Part shown: positions 1-37,100 of the stretch, piece by piece
How positions within the stretch are numbered: position 1 is the stretch's first letter
How the letters are laid out: every line of letters starts with the position of its first letter
NCBI GenBank assembly: GCA_951406725.2
Contig: OX597816.1
Coordinates: 108,066,001-108,130,000, forward strand
Reading direction: 5' to 3'
DNA length: 64,000 nt
Source of the DNA: Octopus vulgaris
Taxonomy: Eukaryota
Notes under the pieces: generated by a model
Databases searched by the model: none
Told to the model about the DNA's origin: nothing
The model's input: the letters and a program-made list of their open reading frames with translations, nothing else
Made by a program: the position numbers and the translations under genes

Positions 1-263
1 CCGCTATCACTATTTCAATCCTGTTGGTAGTTATAAATAACGTTCTATAGATCACTGTCCTTTTCTTTGTCTTCCCAATTACTTCCCTGGGCGGGGTCAG
101 CCTCAGGCTGTCTCCTTCCTTCACTGTCAGTTCGTTGAATTTCTTTAAATTCGTCTTATCAAGTTGTATCTCTCTTACTTGTAAAATATCCGCAGTCAGA
201 CTTTTTCCAGTTACTGCTGGAACTGGTCGACTCTATAACTTCGTTAGCAACAACTTCACCCAT
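1..263 (-). pseudogene. N-terminal part of L1/Tx1-type LINE ORF1 (copy A), runs off the window edge
   Basis: Minus-strand translation VREIQLDKTNLKKFNELTVKEGDSLRLTPPREVIGKTKKRTVIYRTLFITTNRIE aligns with KEGSNIKMTLPEEGKAKMKKKTVIYRTFSNESRRIE in ORF 1723..2139. ATG at 263, frameshift near the start. Confidence 0.7.
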
Positions 264-1006
264 AAGTGAGGAAGAAAACAAAAAAATAACAGGTAACTAA
301 AAATAAATCAGCAATTCGATAATTCAACAATTAGGTACGACAGACATTCAGCAATGATGCAACAAGCGACTTACATGAAGCGACTAACAGCAAATTACAA
401 CAGGGAATCAAACGAGTCGACATCAAAGTGACTAACTGCGAGGCTTGCTAGCTTAATTCTTTATTACTGGCTCAAGGCCTAAACGCAGAGGCGACATACG
501 ACATGCGGGAACAAAATCCACATAAACGGATGAATGTGAAATGAATTAAATTACAATAAAAATAAGACGACTATCTCGCTCCCGCTCTGAGATGAAACCT
601 TGCATTCCTTTTTCCTTTAAACCTTTATATTTAACATAACAATTTCCAGCCCCGTTCGGAGGCGAAACCGCGACTTTCCTTTTCGTTTTGACCTTACAAT
701 TTAAAAACTTTTTAAACAAATGTTCATACACGATTTCCTTTTTTTTTTTTCCTTTTTTTTTTAAACCAAAAAGTTTAACCCATTTTTTTACACAGTTTTC
801 AGTTTCTAAATTAAATCACGACTTAACACTTCTTTTCGTTCACATATTTCTCCACCGAGGCGCGAAGTTCAAAATCCATCTCCGGCCTCAGTGGGTTCAA
901 TCTCTCACAATGTCTTTCAATTTTGAAATTTTTCAAGTTTGGGGTGTTCTATATTTCATTATAAATTTTCTTTTGTTTGTGTTTTGCATGTTGTCGCTTT
1001 TTGTCT

Positions 1007-2197
1007 CTATATTTCTGCAGTTCTTGCCTTTCGTGTGATTGTATCTGCGTGTCTGTGTGTTCGTGTAATTTGTGTGTCTGTGTGTTTGTTTGACTGTAAT
1101 TCTACGTGTTTCATCTGTGTGTCTATGTCTTTAGTTTTCCTTAACTCTGGGTTTTCTTGTTCCTGTTCGTTATTACTTGTGTGCTTTTGCAATTCTACGT
1201 GTTTGAGAGTCTGCTGGTCTGACTGACTCTGTACATGTAAGTCCTATACTGGTGATCCTACTGGTAAATATTCTATGTTTCTTGTAGTGGGTTGGGTTTC
1301 CTCTTCCATTGCTTTGTACTTTTTCAATTCCACTATCGTCGGTGACTTCCTTCTCTCTCTTTTTTCTGGCTTTCACCTCCGCAAAGTTTCCGTCATATTC
1401 TGTTTTCTGTTTCTGCTTTTTTTTACCATTATATCCCCCTGAATACTCTCCTCTACCATTTCCACTGTTGCTCTAGGGCATTTCTGTCTCAAGTGCCCTC
1501 TTTCACCACATTCGTAACACTTTAGGGGGCGGGTCCCCTCCAACATTATCTCCAGCCTTGCTTCATTTGGTAGCTCTAAAGTTCAGGTACTTCGTTGTAA
1601 TATTTCGGGCTCATTGCACAAATTATCTCTAATCCGTAACCCACCACTTCACTTGTGTTCGGCTTACCATGCCAATCCCCGCTTTCCTTCCTCAGCTCCG
1701 AATTAAAAATTGAGACTATTATTCACTCTGGGTCTATCGACGGTGGGATTCTTCCCACCCTAATTCTAACAATTCTTTTGTCCAAGCAGTTAGACATCGG
1801 AGTCCATTTTTCTCCCTGTATCAGCTTGTTGGCGGGTTTTTTCGCCTCCTCTTCTGATAAAAAGGTTACTTCTATCGACGCATATATCCTTCCTCTTGTA
1901 AAGAACGTTATGCTGTCTCCTATTTGTTCTTCCAAGATTTCTTCTATCTCTTCCTGCGGCGCGTATTCAATTCTTCGGCTTTCATTCGAAAATGTTCTAT
2001 ATATGACCGTCTTCTTTTTCATTTTCGCTTTTCCCTCCTCTGGCAGGGTCATTTTTATATTTGACCCTTCCTTCTCTACCATACCATAATATTTGTTTAT
2101 AAGCTCCTCATTCCACTGTATCATCTCCGGTTTCAGCACACGTGGGTCTAGGGGAACTCGACCTCCAGTAGCCTCTGCATACCTTATTTTACTCAGT
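1007..2197 (-). pseudogene. L1/Tx1-type LINE ORF1 (gag-like, CCHC zinc knuckle), copy B, disrupted
   Basis: YAEA N-terminal motif and RRM-like segment (ORF 1723..2139, ...VRIRVGRIPPSI). CYECGERGHLRQKC (C-x2-C-x4-H-x4-C) at ~1478-1519, followed by a low-complexity tail. Stops and frameshifts present. Confidence 0.75.
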
Positions 2198-2311
2198 TAT
2201 TCACTACCACACAACAATGGCAGTTTCGCACAAAAAATCGGCTAGACTTCTTAAAAAAACAACAAAAAGGCGTGGTTTGGTAGCTTTCGATGCCTACTCG
2301 CTTTTAAAAAC

Positions 2312-2591
2312 ATATATATTTCAAGTGAAAAACATTCACTGATTTCGAAAATAGAAATATTACATTTCTAAATCTCTCACAGAGATTTATACAGTAGCAG
2401 CACCATAAAGTGATGGCATGTTGTCAACTTAATGTGACAGTAGCATTCTTCCCTTTCATGGGACTGTCATATTAAGTTGACAACATGGCATCACTTTATT
2501 GTTCTGCTACTGTATAAATCTCTCAGAGAGATTTAGAAATGTAAATTTCTATTTTCGAAATCAGTGAATGTATTTCACTTGAAATATATAT
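2312..2591. mobile_element. Foldback/MITE-like palindrome, ~130-bp arms with 21-nt spacer
   Basis: 2312-2441 is the near-perfect reverse complement of 2463-2591. Both outer ends are ATATATAT. Confidence 0.85.
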
Positions 2592-2595
2592 ATTT

Positions 2596-4626
2596 CCAAA
2601 GGCGAATAGCCGTGGACAATAGCAAGTCAAGCCAATTTCCACGTGAGTAAGCAGTCCTTCAGGCTGGTAGTTGTCTACACTCCTAACGAGCGTGGGAAGT
2701 CTGGTTTTTTTTTCGAGACCTGGAGCACTTTCTAGTGACGTCAAAAACGGTAGTTCTAGTTGGGAACTTTAACACTATCCTCGATGCGCAGGTGGATAGT
2801 GTTGGCTCAACTGATAGGAAAGGGAATCCTAGCCTCAAGGGAGACTGGATGAACCGAGCGTACCACAGTGGACGTGGAGTAACAGCGACGGTTCACTCAG
2901 ATCGTACTTAGATAGGATATTCGTTAGTTAAAGAGCTAAGGATACTTTTAGTTGTCCACAGTTTCACGTTGTGCCTTACACGGATCACAAATTCGTAACG
3001 TGTGAGGTGCATTTAGATAAATGTCATTGACAGGGACCCAGGTACTGGAAGCTAAACAAGTCTATTTTGACTTGTGAAGACTTTCGTATCCAGATTAAGG
3101 TGTTAATACAGAGGGCATTATGTGACACCACCATTAATAATTCATGGTTCCATGCCCTCAAAAGTGCCATCCGTTTGGAGCCCATTAGATTTAGCAATCA
3201 GCTAAGTTTAGATAGGACTAGAATAGTGGGTGATTTAGTTAAGAACTAAGACGGGGTGATGGAATCTGGCTCTGCATCTAGAATGCTGCCGGCGAGAACG
3301 GTCTTGTACCGTCACCTCAACTCCAAGCACGAAGGTTGCAGAGTTAGAAGCTAAGCTACGTGCGGGGAAACGAGAGGGTGTTAACGTTGCCGGATGGTAC
3401 AGGTGTTTATTGCATCTGTAATCACTTATCGCCTGACCGTTGTCTCTTGCTTCGAATCGTGGTTAAACAAGTTGGAACGGCTCCTTTTCTGTTTTTTTGT
3501 GGAAGGGAGGAAAGCCACTTGTAAGGCTCTCCATTTGCTGCCAGGAACCTTTAAAGGGTGGGCTAGGGATGTCTTGGCTAATGATACGCAGACATGCGTT
3601 GAGGCTGAGATATCTTTGGTGCCACCTGGAAGGAAATAAGGTGCGGAGTCCGCTGGCAGAGGAATTCTTCCCGCGACCGGCCTCTATGGACAGATTTACA
3701 CCCGGGTTCATAAAAAGACGTAATCTGACTGTGTGGCAGAAGGAGTGCTGACAAGCATTCACGTTGATCAACAAGACTGGCAGCGGGAATAACACCTCGG
3801 TGTTCTATAGAGGGTTGGTAGAGGCTAAAAATGATGACGTCCTAGGAGGGGCTCTGGGGTTCGACGAGAACCAACTAACCAAACTGTTTAAAAAGAGTTT
3901 CAGGCCAGAGTATTTGGATAAGTTCCCAAACTCCCTGACCTGGCAGTGCTACAGGAACGCTTTACCTGTTTGCGATAAGTTATCTAGGCACGGAATGTCA
4001 ATGCCACCGATATGTCCAAGATGCGGGCCGGACGATGAAACCGTTCAGCACGCTTTTGTACAATGTCGGGAGTTTGTTAAGCTTGATAAATTATGTAAAA
4101 CACGTATTGTCGCATCTGGGACGAGTACAGTTGTCGGCTGTAAAGATGGTACCGCCAACTGGACTCTCAAACGAAGGTGAGGCAGTTTTTCACTGTACGG
4201 TTGCAGTATTGAAAGAGTGAGTATGGCGGACTAGAATGGAAGGGTCCTTCGTCTCTGGCCCCGGTTTGATAACCTACTTCAGATGTCATCTGAAGAGCAT
4301 GACGGGGTTGGAGAGGAAAACCCTACCGCAGAGCGTGTATGAGAAACGTTAGAAGGATGTGATGAGAAAGGCGGGTGTCAGTAACCCAGCTTAATCATCG
4401 ATGAAGGAAGTAAATATAGTTTCTGGGCCTTACAGGCTGCTGGGTATGTATTCTGAGCTTATTTTATTATATTTCAAAATTTAAAAACAGGATAGTCTAC
4501 AGTCAATTAAATTATATAAATTTATATTAACATTTTTAAGGTTCATTCGAAGTAAGATTAACATTTTTTCTAATTGTTTCGTCCTGTAATATCCCATCTA
4601 TGTAACGATTCAATAATCATAATAAA
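2596..4626 (+). mobile_element. L1/Tx1-clade LINE ORF2 remnant: APE endonuclease plus C-terminal zinc finger, RT core absent
   Basis: EN motifs FRLVVVYTPN, VVLVGNFN, WTWSNSDGSLRSYLDRIFV, YTDHK and GPRYWKLNKSIL. Then WKGGKPLV..CCQEPLKGGLGM and zf-RVT-type CPRCGPDDETVQHAFVQC. AATAAA at 4621. Confidence 0.9.
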
Positions 4627-4630
4627 AATG

Positions 4631-5290
4631 AAGCTAGCAAGCCAAGCCTTTTCTTCTGTGACACGTCGTTATCTTCAGTTTGCTACCCTGCGTTATGTGA
4701 GTCCGTTTCTGTCTGTTTCTTGTACATTTGTGTTATCTGTGAAATACCTTAACTGAATTTGAACTGTTGTCTTTTGACAAACAGTAATTTCTGTTAATTT
4801 TTATTGAAATATTTTTGTGAACAGTTTATTTTTTATCCTTTGCGGGTTATTTTTTCTGAAAAATTTTCTTGTCATTCGTGACAAGTTTTTTTAAAGAGTG
4901 TTGATATGGAATTTGACTTTTCGTCAAAAAAGGACTTTCCCTGAGATGGGAAAAGGAAATACAATCGTGAACCAGTGGGATACCAAGGAGAAACAGAGTT
5001 TTTCACCCACGACGGGCAATAACGTTACAGAAGTTGAAGTAACTATGGACCAGCTTTTCAAGTTTAGAAACCTAATTTTAAAAAAGTGGAGCGGATATCA
5101 AGTTGTTGCCGCCCCCGAGATAGTACAAGCCATTAATGCGAAAACAGTTATGTACCAAGTCTACAACATCAAAGAAAAACGTATAATGGAGGCAAAAAAT
5201 GAAGCAGTAGAAAAATGTAAGGCACCTTCTGGAATAAAGTACGCTACGTTAGCCGAGGAGCAAGAAGCCCCACAATTGAGGCACATTTCG
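4631..5290 (+). pseudogene. 5' UTR plus truncated Tx1-type ORF1 (copy C)
   Basis: ORF 4898..5305 segment PEIVQAINAKTVMYQVYNIKEKRIMEAKNEAVEK resembles PEEGKAKMKKKTVIYRTFSNESRRIEYAPQEEIEE of copy B. Confidence 0.6.
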
Positions 5291-5431
5291 AGTCGGCTAG
5301 CGTAGCTAAGGCGGTGTCTACACACACGTTGAAGAATGAAGAGATAATGCTGCTGTCCACTTACTTGAGTCGCAGGACCGCAAAAGTGACAGGGACGAGA
5401 CCCCTGTAGGGTATGAGGTAATGTGGATTGC

Positions 5432-5823
5432 AGGAGAACCCAGTCATGACTGTCAGGCAATTTCTGCGACCACATCACCCCTAATATTTGGCCACCTAAC
5501 TCCTCAGACTGCATCTACCTTGATTATTATGTGTGGGCGCAGTTGAGCGAAAGACCAGCAAAACTCCTTGTAATACCAAAGATGAGCTAAAAGCAAAGAT
5601 TACGGCAACATTCATCAACTTTAAAAGCAGACCTTCCAGAAGCGTTACAGGAGATTCTGACGTTGTCTAGAGGCTGTGGCTGAAGCCAATAGCAATTTTA
5701 GTAAATAAATTTACTCTTTGATATTTCAAGTTAATTTTATGTAATTTTGTTAAATAAAATGAGCTGTCGGTGTTATATTAATTTTTTGCATAAATTAGAT
5801 GACAACGTATCCACTGCACTGTT
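5432..5823 (+). mobile_element. Tc1/mariner (maT/DD37D-like) transposase C-terminal fragment
   Basis: Translation RRTQS*LSGNFCDHITPNIWPPNSSDCIYLDYYVW...NTKDELKAKI matches the WPPNSPDLNPLDY motif. Confidence 0.75.
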
Positions 5824-18999: not shown

Positions 19000-19445
19000 C
19001 AACAGTAAAATCGTCCCTTTCAGTACAGCTACATTATGTTGGCAAATAGTCTTTGCTTTAAAGAACTATTACCGAATATCTCTCGTTGAGGGATTTAGAA
19101 ATACTAATATTTCTGACTGTGCGTCACTTTGATAACTATATGTTCGAACGGTGAATTCAGCAACGCCATCTGGCCAAAGCAGCTACTCTGTGTTGATAAA
19201 GAGCAATAACCCAGAAACTAGTCTACAGGTGTTGCTTTGCGCTAGATGGGAATGTTGAGCTCCGTGCTCGAAAATATAAGGACACAGATAGTTTGTCGTA
19301 TAGCCTATCTAGAAATGATGGGACTAAATCAACAGTAACATCGTCCCTTTCGGGACATCCGCACTATGTTGGTAAATAGCCTTTACTTTAAAGAACTGTT
19401 ACTGAATGTCTCTCGTTGAGAGATTTAGATATAATAATATTTCTG
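19000..19445 (+). repeat. Diverged ~115-bp direct repeat (19000-19115 and 19330-19445)
   Basis: caacagtaa.atcgtccctttc...ctttaaagaact.ttac.gaat.tctctcgttgag.gatttaga...aatatttctg occurs twice. Confidence 0.85.
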
Positions 19446-20498
19446 TTCTATATTTAAGAGATGAGGATTTATGTGCGTTATTTATATTATTTACATTCGA
19501 CGGATGTTTGTCCTCATCTTGTTTGTTGTTAACACAACGTTTCGGCTGATATAACCTCCAGCCTTCATCAGGTGTCTTGGTGAAATTTCGAATCTGGATT
19601 CTCATTCCTAAGGTATTTTTCAATGTTATTATTGTTGTTGTTGTTGTGTGAATTTTAGGGCTTATAAATCTAATATTTTCCTATCCTTCCTTAATACCGG
19701 TTCCCATATACTGCTCATATCTGCATTTGGTCTGCTTAGGAGGTTGTTGTGTCCTAGCATTTGTGCTGCTTCTTTTAGTTTGCGCATTTTCCAGTGGTGT
19801 TCTCTGTCTATTATTTTAACTTCATCACACAGGGGTAGGTGGTCTCCATTATTTCAACATGATCAGCTACACCCGATTGATCAATATCTCCTCGTGTCAC
19901 AGCTTTGCGATGTTCGTCTACCCTTATTTTGAGGGGGTGGCATGTTTCGCATTTGTATAAACTACCACAGCTGCATGGGATGGAGTACACGCAGTCTTTG
20001 GTCATATTCTCTTCTATTGGTGGTTTTACTCGAAGGAGATATTTGCGAAGTGTTGTATTACTCTTGAATACTGTCCTGATGTCATATGGGCCGCATATCT
20101 TTTGTATCTTTTCAGAGAGGCCTTTCATATAGGGTAGACAGGCTGTGGACAGCTTATTGGCCTAATCCTCTCTCTTCTTCATAATTAGAGTGGATAGTAT
20201 ACTTTTGGGGCAGTTGTTGCTTAACAGATCGGTATTGAGCTTGATCATTTCTTCGTAGTGTGTACTTATATTCTTTGTACGATGTTTTAGGTACTGAGCA
20301 ATCCTTCTCTTTACACTGTATGGATGGTGGGAATTGAAGTTGAAGTATTGTCCAGTAAAGGTCGGCTTGCGGTATACGGATGTCCTGAATCCATACTTTG
20401 TGCATGTTATTAATGCGTCCAGGAATGCCAGCTGATTACCTTTTTTTTTTTTTTTTGATGAGGACAAATATCCGTCGAATGTAAATAATATGAATAAT
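19446..20498 (-). mobile_element. 5'-truncated Penelope-like element (RT thumb, GIY-YIG, pLTR)
   Basis: LAFLDALI..TSVYRKPTFTGQYFNFNSHHP (20162..20467) and CVYSIPCSCGSLYKCETCHPLKIRVDEHRK (19811..20128). Hammerhead in the 3' pLTR and an inverted pLTR tail at the 5' end. Confidence 0.92.
19531..19576 (-). ncRNA. Minimal type I hammerhead ribozyme in PLE pLTR
   Basis: GACAC-CUGAUGAA-GGCUG-gagguuauau-CAGCC-GAAA-CG-UU-GUGUU: helix I GACAC/GUGUU, 5-bp helix II, palindromic ACGU helix III, GUU triplet. Confidence 0.8.
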
Positions 20499-35599: not shown

Positions 35600-37100
35600 A
35601 ATGGAGAGCATCATAACTATAACTTATTAATGGGACATCCAGATTATTGACGCTCATTATCTTACATGTTACAGTTAACCACACCCTCCTTGTTTTTAGC
35701 ATCAAGCTCGTACATGTATGATATTCCTTTCTAGTTTATTACTTCCATTTGTCTATTTCATTAATTGCTTATTTATAATTCTTTTTGATTGGTGTAATCG
35801 TCTTATCTCTGTCGCATTATCTAACATGGAAGCGCTCTTAATTAATTTCTCCATCTGCGATATTGCCTTAAGCCATTTTTCTCATTCGAATTTAATGTCA
35901 ATACTTCCAATAAAGTTGTGAAGTTTCTGTAATGGTTTTTCTGTTTGCTTATTGCCTGCAACATATAACTTGAGGTCGTCCATCATTTAAATCATGTCTG
36001 CTTTAACATGTTGTATACGTATTTGTGCAAAGCAGAACGGGGGTGTTGAGAGCGAGCCACCTCGAAATATTTCTCTGTAGATGAAGCTAATGTTTATGAT
36101 TTGCTATACCATCATTCTCGCACATTTAGATGGCTTTTTTCATACTCTGAGCCTGTCAGATGTTGGTTCCAGCTTGCTTCTTCACTATTTTCTTAAATCA
36201 TTGTTTCTTAAATATCTCTATAATATTAATTTATATGTCCTTGTTAAATATCTAAACCATGTTGGGTTTTACTTAAGTCTTTGTAAAATCTGGATTATTT
36301 GTATTTACATGGTCTTTTGCAGTTGTCTAGTTCCTGTGTTTTGTTGTAGTTTTTTCACTCATGATACTCTTCCCTACAAATTCTTCTACTTCGCTTGCTT
36401 TCTATTTCTAAACAGTTTTGTGTTGGAGTCGATCTGTCTGATTTGTTCAAATGATCTTTGTCACTGTTCGTAACGAAAAAAATCTCTTGTTTAAAGCGTT
36501 CTTGATTATGGGTAATTCTTTTTTCTTTTTTCTTTTTCTTGGTTTCCTTTTAGTTACTGTTGTTTTACATTGTTATTTCAATTAGTGTTGAGAGATCTTT
36601 TATTTTCTTTATCTTTCTACATGTTTGTTTTACATGCTTTTTGCTTGGTTTGTGGTATTCTCATATGAGTAGATCCAAAAGAGCTTCCGCTTTCCGTTGT
36701 AACCGCCATGGCTGCTGCATACATTATTTCGTTTAACTTTTGATGTTTGTCTCCATTTTCAATAAAATTACTTTGGTCAGGTTTGTGTTTTTTATCACTA
36801 CTGTTACACCTTACTGAGCTTTATATTCTCGTTCTTCGAAACTATTCTACAATGATTTCTACTTTTAATTCAGTATATTTCGAGATTTTTCAATTTCTTT
36901 CCGCACCATGTTATTGTCTGAAGAAATGCTAACGTGCGCCATGAGACATTCTCTTTTTTCCTTATCATGTATAACATCTGGCCTACGTTGTTTAAGTATT
37001 TTATCCGTCTGGATGTGAAAATCGTGTCGTCTTTTGGCTTACTAGGTTCATTTAGAGCTCTCTCTAGTACATAATTGTATTACTTCCTGGTTTGTGGTAT
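35600..37100 (-). mobile_element. Older R4-like LINE fragment (N-terminal region plus RT pieces)
   Basis: Minus-strand LNEIMYAAA (~36720), REIFRGGSLS (~36060, GIFQGDSLS-like) and MDDLKLY (~35975). Confidence 0.65.

Follow-up and report, generated by a model that had tools for sequence, protein, structure and literature searches.

A 13-base motif inside a ~330-base repeat of Octopus vulgaris as the probable target site of stacked LINE insertions

In Octopus vulgaris, a stretch of 64,000 nucleotides (nt; GenBank assembly GCA_951406725.2, contig OX597816.1, positions 108,066,001 to 108,130,000 of the forward strand), here called the window, carries near its left end two stacks of long interspersed nuclear elements (LINEs) and related elements that retain only the first open reading frame (ORF1). 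One stack lies on each strand, and within each of them the 13-base motif AAGCTAGCAAGCC stands between the tail of one element and the 5' end of the next. Comparison with other copies in the genome makes it very probable that the motif is an internal site of a repeat of about 330 bases, where it most likely represents the target-site duplication (TSD) left by sequence-specific insertion, and that repeated hits on this site built the stacks.

Layout of the two stacks

The motif copies, the four elements (designated X, Y, W and Z) and the interrupted repeat, referred to as the host repeat, occupy the following positions of the window.

1-441, minus strand: element Y, 5' part (5' untranslated region, UTR, and frame-shifted ORF1), which runs on to the left of the window as far as L033:8621
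442-454, minus strand: motif copy AAGCTAGCAAGCC, exact, separating the tail of X from the 5' end of Y; interpreted as a duplicated target
455-2273, minus strand: element X, ORF1-only, 1819 bp, with 5' UTR, broken ORF1, non-coding 3' part and tail
2274-2286, minus strand: diverged motif copy AAGCTACCAAACC, 2 mismatches, on the 5' side of X and joined to the left part of the host repeat
2287-2617, no strand assigned: head-to-head pair (palindrome) of the left part of the host repeat, two copies, from alignment of uninterrupted repeats
2618-2633, plus strand: diverged motif copy AATAGCAAGTCAAGCC, on the 5' side of W
2634-4630, plus strand: element W, 5'-truncated, an internally deleted ORF2 remnant with 3' UTR, delimited by comparison to a full-length relative
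4631-4643, plus strand: motif copy AAGCTAGCAAGCC, exact, between the W tail and the Z 5' end
4644-~5456, plus strand: element Z, 5' UTR and the first ~200 ORF1 codons, of the full-length type, cut off at ~5456

A first-pass annotation of the window had described three motif copies at element junctions, and direct reading of both strands confirmed all three at their positions. Two of them form the junctions of AATAAA, motif and 5' UTR that it had described: 442-465 on the minus strand reads AATAAA-gaatt-AAGCTAGCAAGCC and 4621-4643 on the plus strand reads AATAAA-aatg-AAGCTAGCAAGCC, so that both exact copies have an AATAAA tail upstream. Each of the copies at 442-454, 2274-2286 and 4631-4643 (three of three) leads downstream into a 5' UTR with an ORF1 homologue. 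The third copy had been described as a variant that heads the remaining element, and this is correct for its downstream side, given that 2265-2286 on the minus strand reads AAGCTACCAAACCACGCCTTTT, is identical to 4631-4652 at 19 of 22 positions and leads into the 5' UTR and ORF1 of X. Its upstream side is different in kind, as no element tail was found next to 2274-2286 and the left part of the host repeat lies there instead. With up to 2 mismatches allowed, the motif has 4 matches in the window versus 0.80 expected, a number reached in 1 of 100 shuffles. The fourth match, at 37036-37048 on the minus strand, lies in unrelated sequence.

The uninterrupted host repeat reads ...GCATCGA C AGCTAGCAAGCC ATGCTACTCC.... 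and can be aligned to both arms. Its left part through the motif aligns to window positions 2383->2270 on the minus strand and 2521->2634 on the plus strand, and the motif through its right part aligns to positions 8619->8406 on the minus strand of the left neighbour of the window (L033). The split repeat that brackets the minus stack in this way is 80-84% identical to uninterrupted copies. The order along the minus arm is motif, X, motif, Y, motif and the right half of the repeat; along the plus arm it is motif, W, motif and Z, followed by a break. Distinct families are thus stacked head to tail around the motif, X with Y and W with Z, as the first-pass annotation had proposed. Both stacks are as expected of repeated insertion into a site that is regenerated each time. 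Head-to-head pairs of the host repeat are common elsewhere in the genome.

Empty, filled and variant sites in the genome

Across the 2.8-Gb genome there are 72 exact copies of the 13-mer, versus 35 of a reversed control. Among the first 30 exact loci, a LINE tail lies directly upstream of the motif in 10, and 2 are unoccupied copies of the short host repeat. Seven others lie inside an unrelated repeat resembling a short interspersed nuclear element (SINE; L003, L006, L013, L020, L024, L029, L030), 4 lie inside another repeat (L014, L017, L023, L027) and the remaining 7 have assorted contexts. The 11 loci of the 30 that fall in these two other repeat families are seemingly unrelated to insertions.

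Alignment of the flanks identifies the motif followed by ATGCTACTCCAGACTGATGA... as part of the host repeat, in which the usual form of the site is CAGCTAGCAAGCC. A first look returned 3333 candidate copies of this repeat, 40 of which were scored. Searches with one flank attached to the motif distinguish occupied from unoccupied sites. The left flank plus motif has 103 matches; among the 100 listed, 95 continue into the right part of the repeat, 4 lead into the 5' end of an element of the X or Y type and the last is ambiguous. The motif plus right flank has 81 matches, with a LINE AATAAA tail directly upstream in 14-15 (~6 X-type and ~8 W-like) and the left flank of the repeat upstream in the remaining ~66. 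Empty sites therefore exist and form the majority. The self-targeting envisaged in the first-pass annotation is contradicted by the same counts, since the motif belongs to a separate repeat that is unoccupied in the 95 and ~66 matches just described.

At filled sites the AATAAA tail is joined directly to (C/A)AGCTAGCAAGCC, and a second motif copy precedes the 5' end of the element. Of four 5' junctions that were fetched, two belong to solitary insertions for which both ends could be read (L078 and L079). L078 consists of the left flank, CAGCTAGCAAGCC, an X-type element of 1726 bp, AAGCTAGCAAGCC and the right flank. The same layout is found at L079, where a Y-type element of 2163 bp is followed by GAGCTAGCAAGCC as the site on its 3' side. 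Because the first base differs between the two site copies, the duplicated part would be AGCTAGCAAGCC, perhaps together with the next A, and the TSD is most likely 12-13 bp long. The suggestion that the motif is a target site is well supported by a repeat that is mostly unoccupied and by solitary insertions that have the motif on both sides and the halves of the repeat outside.

Tails of the X type were found 50 times, versus 7 control matches, and 37 of the 50 are followed by one of four homologous site variants. These are the motif class (17 of 50), ACCTCTAGCCGAAC as the second variant (7 of 50), a ATCTCTAGCAGACT-like third variant (7 of 50) and a fourth that is ...GGTGATTGTC-like (6 of 50); other sequence follows the tail in 13 of 50. 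Together with the tails found upstream of the motif in 10 of the first 30 exact loci, the 17 tails of the motif class agree with the predicted enrichment of the motif at LINE 3'/5' junctions. Diverged subfamilies of the host repeat carry the second and fourth variants at the homologous position, and the third has been seen only between stacked elements. About 17 of 80 second-variant sites are filled (~7 with X-type and ~10 with full-length-type tails), and the rest have the subfamily's own left flank. X-type 5' ends are preceded by whichever variant is occupied; a search with a strict pattern for these ends gave 4 matches versus 4 for the control and is anecdotal. Since each site variant puts a different 13-mer in front of the X-type 5' end, the motif is not part of the element, which goes against the other option raised in the first-pass annotation, namely that it is a conserved LINE terminus.

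The variants differ in the duplicated word and share their flanks. In a small tree of 17 X-type 3' parts, drawn without support values, copies at the second and third variants are scattered among the motif-class copies. One X-type lineage thereby occupies homologous positions in repeat subfamilies that differ in the duplicated word (for example, L084, L085 and L086). Three of the four variants have in common their flanks and, 2-5 nt from the junction, a CTAGC core.

The host repeat, the elements and their relatives

The host repeat is abundant, about 330 nt long and has a G+C content (GC) of 0.37-0.40. A miniature inverted-repeat transposable element was the first identity tried, and it was rejected since the copies lack fixed termini and their inverted modules do not lie at a constant place. 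No inverted repeats at fixed ends were found among the copies, whose collinear part extends only from about -35 to +230/300 relative to the motif. Their inverted modules fit back-to-back arms, and several copies end in (TA)n. Another copy within the window, at 19003-19460 on the plus strand, consists of 1.4 tandem units of 332 nt and belongs to a diverged subfamily; it is separate from the stacks and has an empty, diverged site (19166-19179) and a mutated hammerhead-like core. At L055 and L060 the end of the unit precedes its start, which is a tandem arrangement.

The hammerhead-like core lies 21 bases after the motif and reads CCAGA-CUGAUGA-(14 nt)-GAAA-CUA-GUC-UCUGG, the same order of motifs as in a minimal type I hammerhead whose helix III is a single pair and whose loop is palindromic. 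In 28 distinct copies with the GAAACUAGU anchor, CUGAUGA and GUH are kept in 27 and all five of the five helix I pairs in 12. Other subfamilies have helix I in other letters (CACAUG/CGUGUG, UCUAGA/UCUAGA, UCUGUG/CACAGA and CUGUG/UACAG), where the pairing across five subfamilies includes one set of rows that had been pre-filtered for pairing and three pairings that were read by eye. Rfam returned no hammerhead match over 461 nt at E<=1, and over 91 nt at E<=10 it returned no hammerhead and only weak chance matches to C/D-box small nucleolar RNAs. A single-sequence fold of the repeat was not better than shuffles (z = -0.61). Based on its tandem 332-nt units, low GC and hammerhead-order motif, the host is called retrozyme-like here, a putative identity.

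Element X has its ORF1 broken into frames at 1723-2196 and 1373-1582, the latter with a zf-CCHC match (1e-4), followed by a non-coding 3' part of ~0.9 kb and a tail that ends ...GTAATAAAGAATT. Element Y has a whole length of ~1.83 kb and an ORF1 with a CCHC knuckle, the pattern being seen in the left neighbour. No similarity to ORF2 was found in X, Y, L078, L079 or L096. At other loci homologues of the X ORF1 lie ~0.9-1.4 kb upstream of the same kind of tail, and this spacing, along with the solitary copy of 1726 bp, indicates that X and Y are complete ORF1-only ("half-LINE") elements of ~1.8 kb and not truncated LINEs. The earlier description of three ORF1 units thus holds insofar as ORF1 homologues follow all three motif copies, and needs amending in that two of the three units are complete ORF1-only elements.

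On the plus arm, W matches residues 116-380 and 804-1148 of the 1148-amino-acid (aa) ORF2 of its full-length relative at ~80% nucleotide identity; it is without the reverse transcriptase (RT) core and has kept zf-RVT (1.1e-09). The ORF1 of Z is 32-55% identical, depending on the stretch, to the ORF1 of two full-length relatives (L076 and L077). A junction downstream of Z was sought and not found in the window, the sole other copy of the host repeat being the one at 19003-19460. Inspection by eye suggests that the sequence which cuts off Z (~5340-5700, plus strand) may be the terminal part of a gene for a transposase of the Tc1/mariner type. Over their last ~110 nt, the tails of X, Y, W and the full-length type have scattered shared blocks without strong identity, and these tails have in common an AATAAA-containing end stretch (TAATAAA in most). 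In the left neighbour, 3 kb past the end of the minus-strand stack, an open frame of 704 aa with RT motifs (L033:3414-5528, plus strand) belongs to an unrelated LINE and is ~25% identical to the ORF2 studied here.

The ORF2 of the full-length relative at L076:820-4263 has matches to Exo_endo_phos (6.7e-13), RVT_1 (4.5e-32) and zf-RVT (7.5e-10), and zf-CCHC is found in the ORF1 of both L076 and L077. This family forms arrays of 5264-bp units separated by a 14-nt spacer, which gives a period of 5278. Whether they lie on one chromosome or on different ones, the units are 99.4-100% identical, and many of the 1148-aa ORF2 frames are open. A six-unit array on C5 (~31.6 kb; L088, L089, G000:C5:29174001-29217000) has the spacer word at both of its ends, and further array loci are L076 (G000:C9:58633001-58643000) and L077. 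The 5' end of another LINE follows a full-length array.

For the ORF1-only families, which are 20-40% identical to each other, a first look gave 8932 candidates, 150 of which were scored. In one young family, five 1.79-kb units form an array on the minus strand (L098, L096 and L097; G000:C4:70038001-70056000), in which frames of 457-461 aa are open in 3 units and of 320-332 aa in 2, with a weak CCHC knuckle. The word (T)CGCGTTTTTTT lies between the units and at both ends of the array, one junction has a run of 26 A residues, and beyond the array come at least three further ORF1-only elements in head-to-tail order. With spacers between units and at array ends, the rule of one duplicated word between stacked elements also holds at other targets. 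Such half-LINEs would make up a guild of several ORF1-only families of ~1.8 kb, some of which are young, with intact 457-aa frames and arrays of their own.

Insertion model, alternatives and known parallels

A mechanism that would account for the junctions begins with an endonuclease of the apurinic/apyrimidinic endonuclease (APE) type, supplied by the autonomous relatives, which would nick the bottom strand just left of AGCTAGC. The top strand would be nicked 12-13 nt further on, and target-primed reverse transcription would then insert the copy and duplicate the site. Repeated insertion at the regenerated site would give rise to head-to-tail stacks. The ORF1-only elements may use ORF2 protein in trans from full-length relatives, with which they share sites and broadly similar tails.

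Several points weigh against this account of the motif as the duplicated target of sequence-specific, Tx1-type LINEs. The counts come from exact-pattern searches, which cover little-diverged copies only, and from samples of up to 30 loci. Two of the four 5' junctions that were fetched (L080 and L081) had no motif-bearing 3' junction within 3 kb. The plus arm is without the right half of the repeat, Z being cut off. Unequal crossing-over is another way in which stacks of near-identical units could have grown. The elements have the make-up of the L1-Tx1 group of non-LTR retrotransposons, with an apurinic-type endonuclease, an RT and a C-terminal zinc-binding motif in ORF2 and a CCHC knuckle in ORF1, and the label Tx1-type fits this architecture and their behaviour. 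Placement in the Tx1 clade itself would be tentative; homologue and cluster searches returned no Tx1-labelled relative, and the nearest named match was a hypothetical protein of Argonauta hians with 59% identity. Finally, the four site variants differ in the 13-mer itself, so the feature recognised by the enzyme may lie in the conserved flanks. This last point leads to a more specific and rather doubtful possibility, namely that a half-LINE guild co-homes with full-length LINEs just upstream of the hammerhead-like motif, with homing read from the flanks, the fold or read-through RNA and not from the duplicated word. The occurrence of the same lineages at homologous positions with differing 13-mers would point to conserved flanks, the ribozyme fold or annealing of read-through RNA as the candidate homing cue.

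Other explanations of the junctions are less probable than this. The stacks could have arisen from RT template switching between RNAs, or from recombination or tandem duplication between motif copies, which is improbable. The sequential insertion read by Kojima from the same pattern (PMC4494074) argues against such routes. A long A run at one junction (L031) can be cited in favour of template switching or recombination, and the arrays of 99.4-100% identical 5264-bp units are what unequal crossing-over could produce. Template switching, however, would leave no copy of the target where a tail meets a 5' end, whereas every junction examined holds one motif copy, and tandem duplication does not yield the mixed-family stacks of the window. 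It is still harder to uphold that the motif is the conserved 5' terminus of several LINE families, for example an initiator or internal promoter, and that new copies aim at resident 5' ends. All three ORF1-bearing units of the window do start right after the motif, and at 10 of the first 30 exact loci the motif has a LINE tail on one side and, on the other, the 5' end of a LINE or the repeat. This idea is largely refuted by the empty sites, in which the motif and its flanks lie unoccupied in a repeat that is not a LINE; it is also at odds with the solitary insertions that have the motif at both ends, with the different sequences that follow the motif in different families (ACGCC..., TCGCAG..., AAGCC...) and with the other 13-mers that precede X-type 5' ends at the other site variants. 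That the motif copies coincide by chance or low complexity and are irrelevant to insertion can practically be dismissed. The exact 13-mer does occur inside two unrelated repeats (7 and 4 of 30 loci), and one window copy with 2 mismatches is unrelated, but three element junctions within 4.2 kb hold the 13-mer, twice exactly and once as a variant, just one shuffle in 100 matched the count, and the same junctions recur genome-wide. Insertion into a fixed site of the host repeat, repeated at the regenerated site, is the explanation preferred here.

R1 and R2 of arthropod ribosomal DNA (rDNA) are site-specific LINEs that can come to lie in tandem when one site is hit repeatedly. They target a gene of the host (28S rDNA) and not a mobile repeat.

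Closer parallels come from the Tx1 clade, many elements of which show target preference according to Kojima 2015 (PMC4494074). The paper describes insertion of Tx1L in the Tx1D transposon of Xenopus laevis, and of the crocodilian Tx1-Mar and SINEU in a Mariner family (Mariner-N4_AMi). It also interprets tandem SINEU-3 copies 'sandwiching a TSD' as sequential insertions. The octopus elements are like Tx1L in Tx1D and like Tx1-Mar in that an APE-type LINE lies at a fixed place and orientation in a more abundant mobile repeat, the target is duplicated and non-autonomous partners share the site. Unlike Tx1D and Mariner-N4_AMi, the octopus host is a low-GC repeat of ~330 nt with a hammerhead-like motif and not a DNA transposon, and unlike the partners of Tx1L and Tx1-Mar, the octopus non-autonomous partners encode ORF1 and are not SINEs; the likeness carries no clade assignment. 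The octopus stacks also resemble the tandem SINEU-3 copies in having head-to-tail copies with one duplicated target between them, and differ from them in mixing families, in reaching up to 5.3 kb and in lying on both arms of an inverted repeat pair. The principle is known, in that published work already covers both LINEs of the Tx1 type with specific target sites and tandem insertions with a duplicated site between them.

The ORF1-only elements have a counterpart in HAL1 ('half L1') of mammals, an ORF1-only derivative of L1 (PMC5753468). The likeness, that of a non-autonomous LINE derivative which keeps only ORF1, is one of function and not of membership; HAL1 derives from mammalian L1 and is not site-specific, whereas X, Y and the 457-aa family are invertebrate elements of L1/Tx1 type with a common homing site. 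For the host repeat, the nearest parallel is the metazoan retrozymes of the non-LTR (non-long-terminal-repeat) kind, repeats with a type I hammerhead ribozyme motif, short tandem units of 150-450 bp, low GC and expression as linear and circular RNA (PMC7229834). The octopus repeat is like these in its low-GC tandem units of ~300 nt and its type I hammerhead-like motif, and unlike them in that the motif is unscored by Rfam hammerhead models. A published octopus repeat annotation lists 13 recently active L1-Tx1 families, and the passages found in it do not address site choice (PMC13282606). In the literature searched, no work was found that joins retrozymes with Tx1, or a hammerhead with target-specific non-LTR insertion.

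The interpretation of the motif as a duplicated target site would turn a repeated word into a readable record of insertion, with a landing site, a duplication length and both empty and filled sites for a group of precise retrotransposons. The four diverged versions of the site and the ORF1-only passengers would provide built-in comparisons for how APE-type LINEs choose DNA. For annotation there is a warning as well, in that stacks of this kind would be nested insertions in a small repeat, without terminal repeats, and not composite elements.

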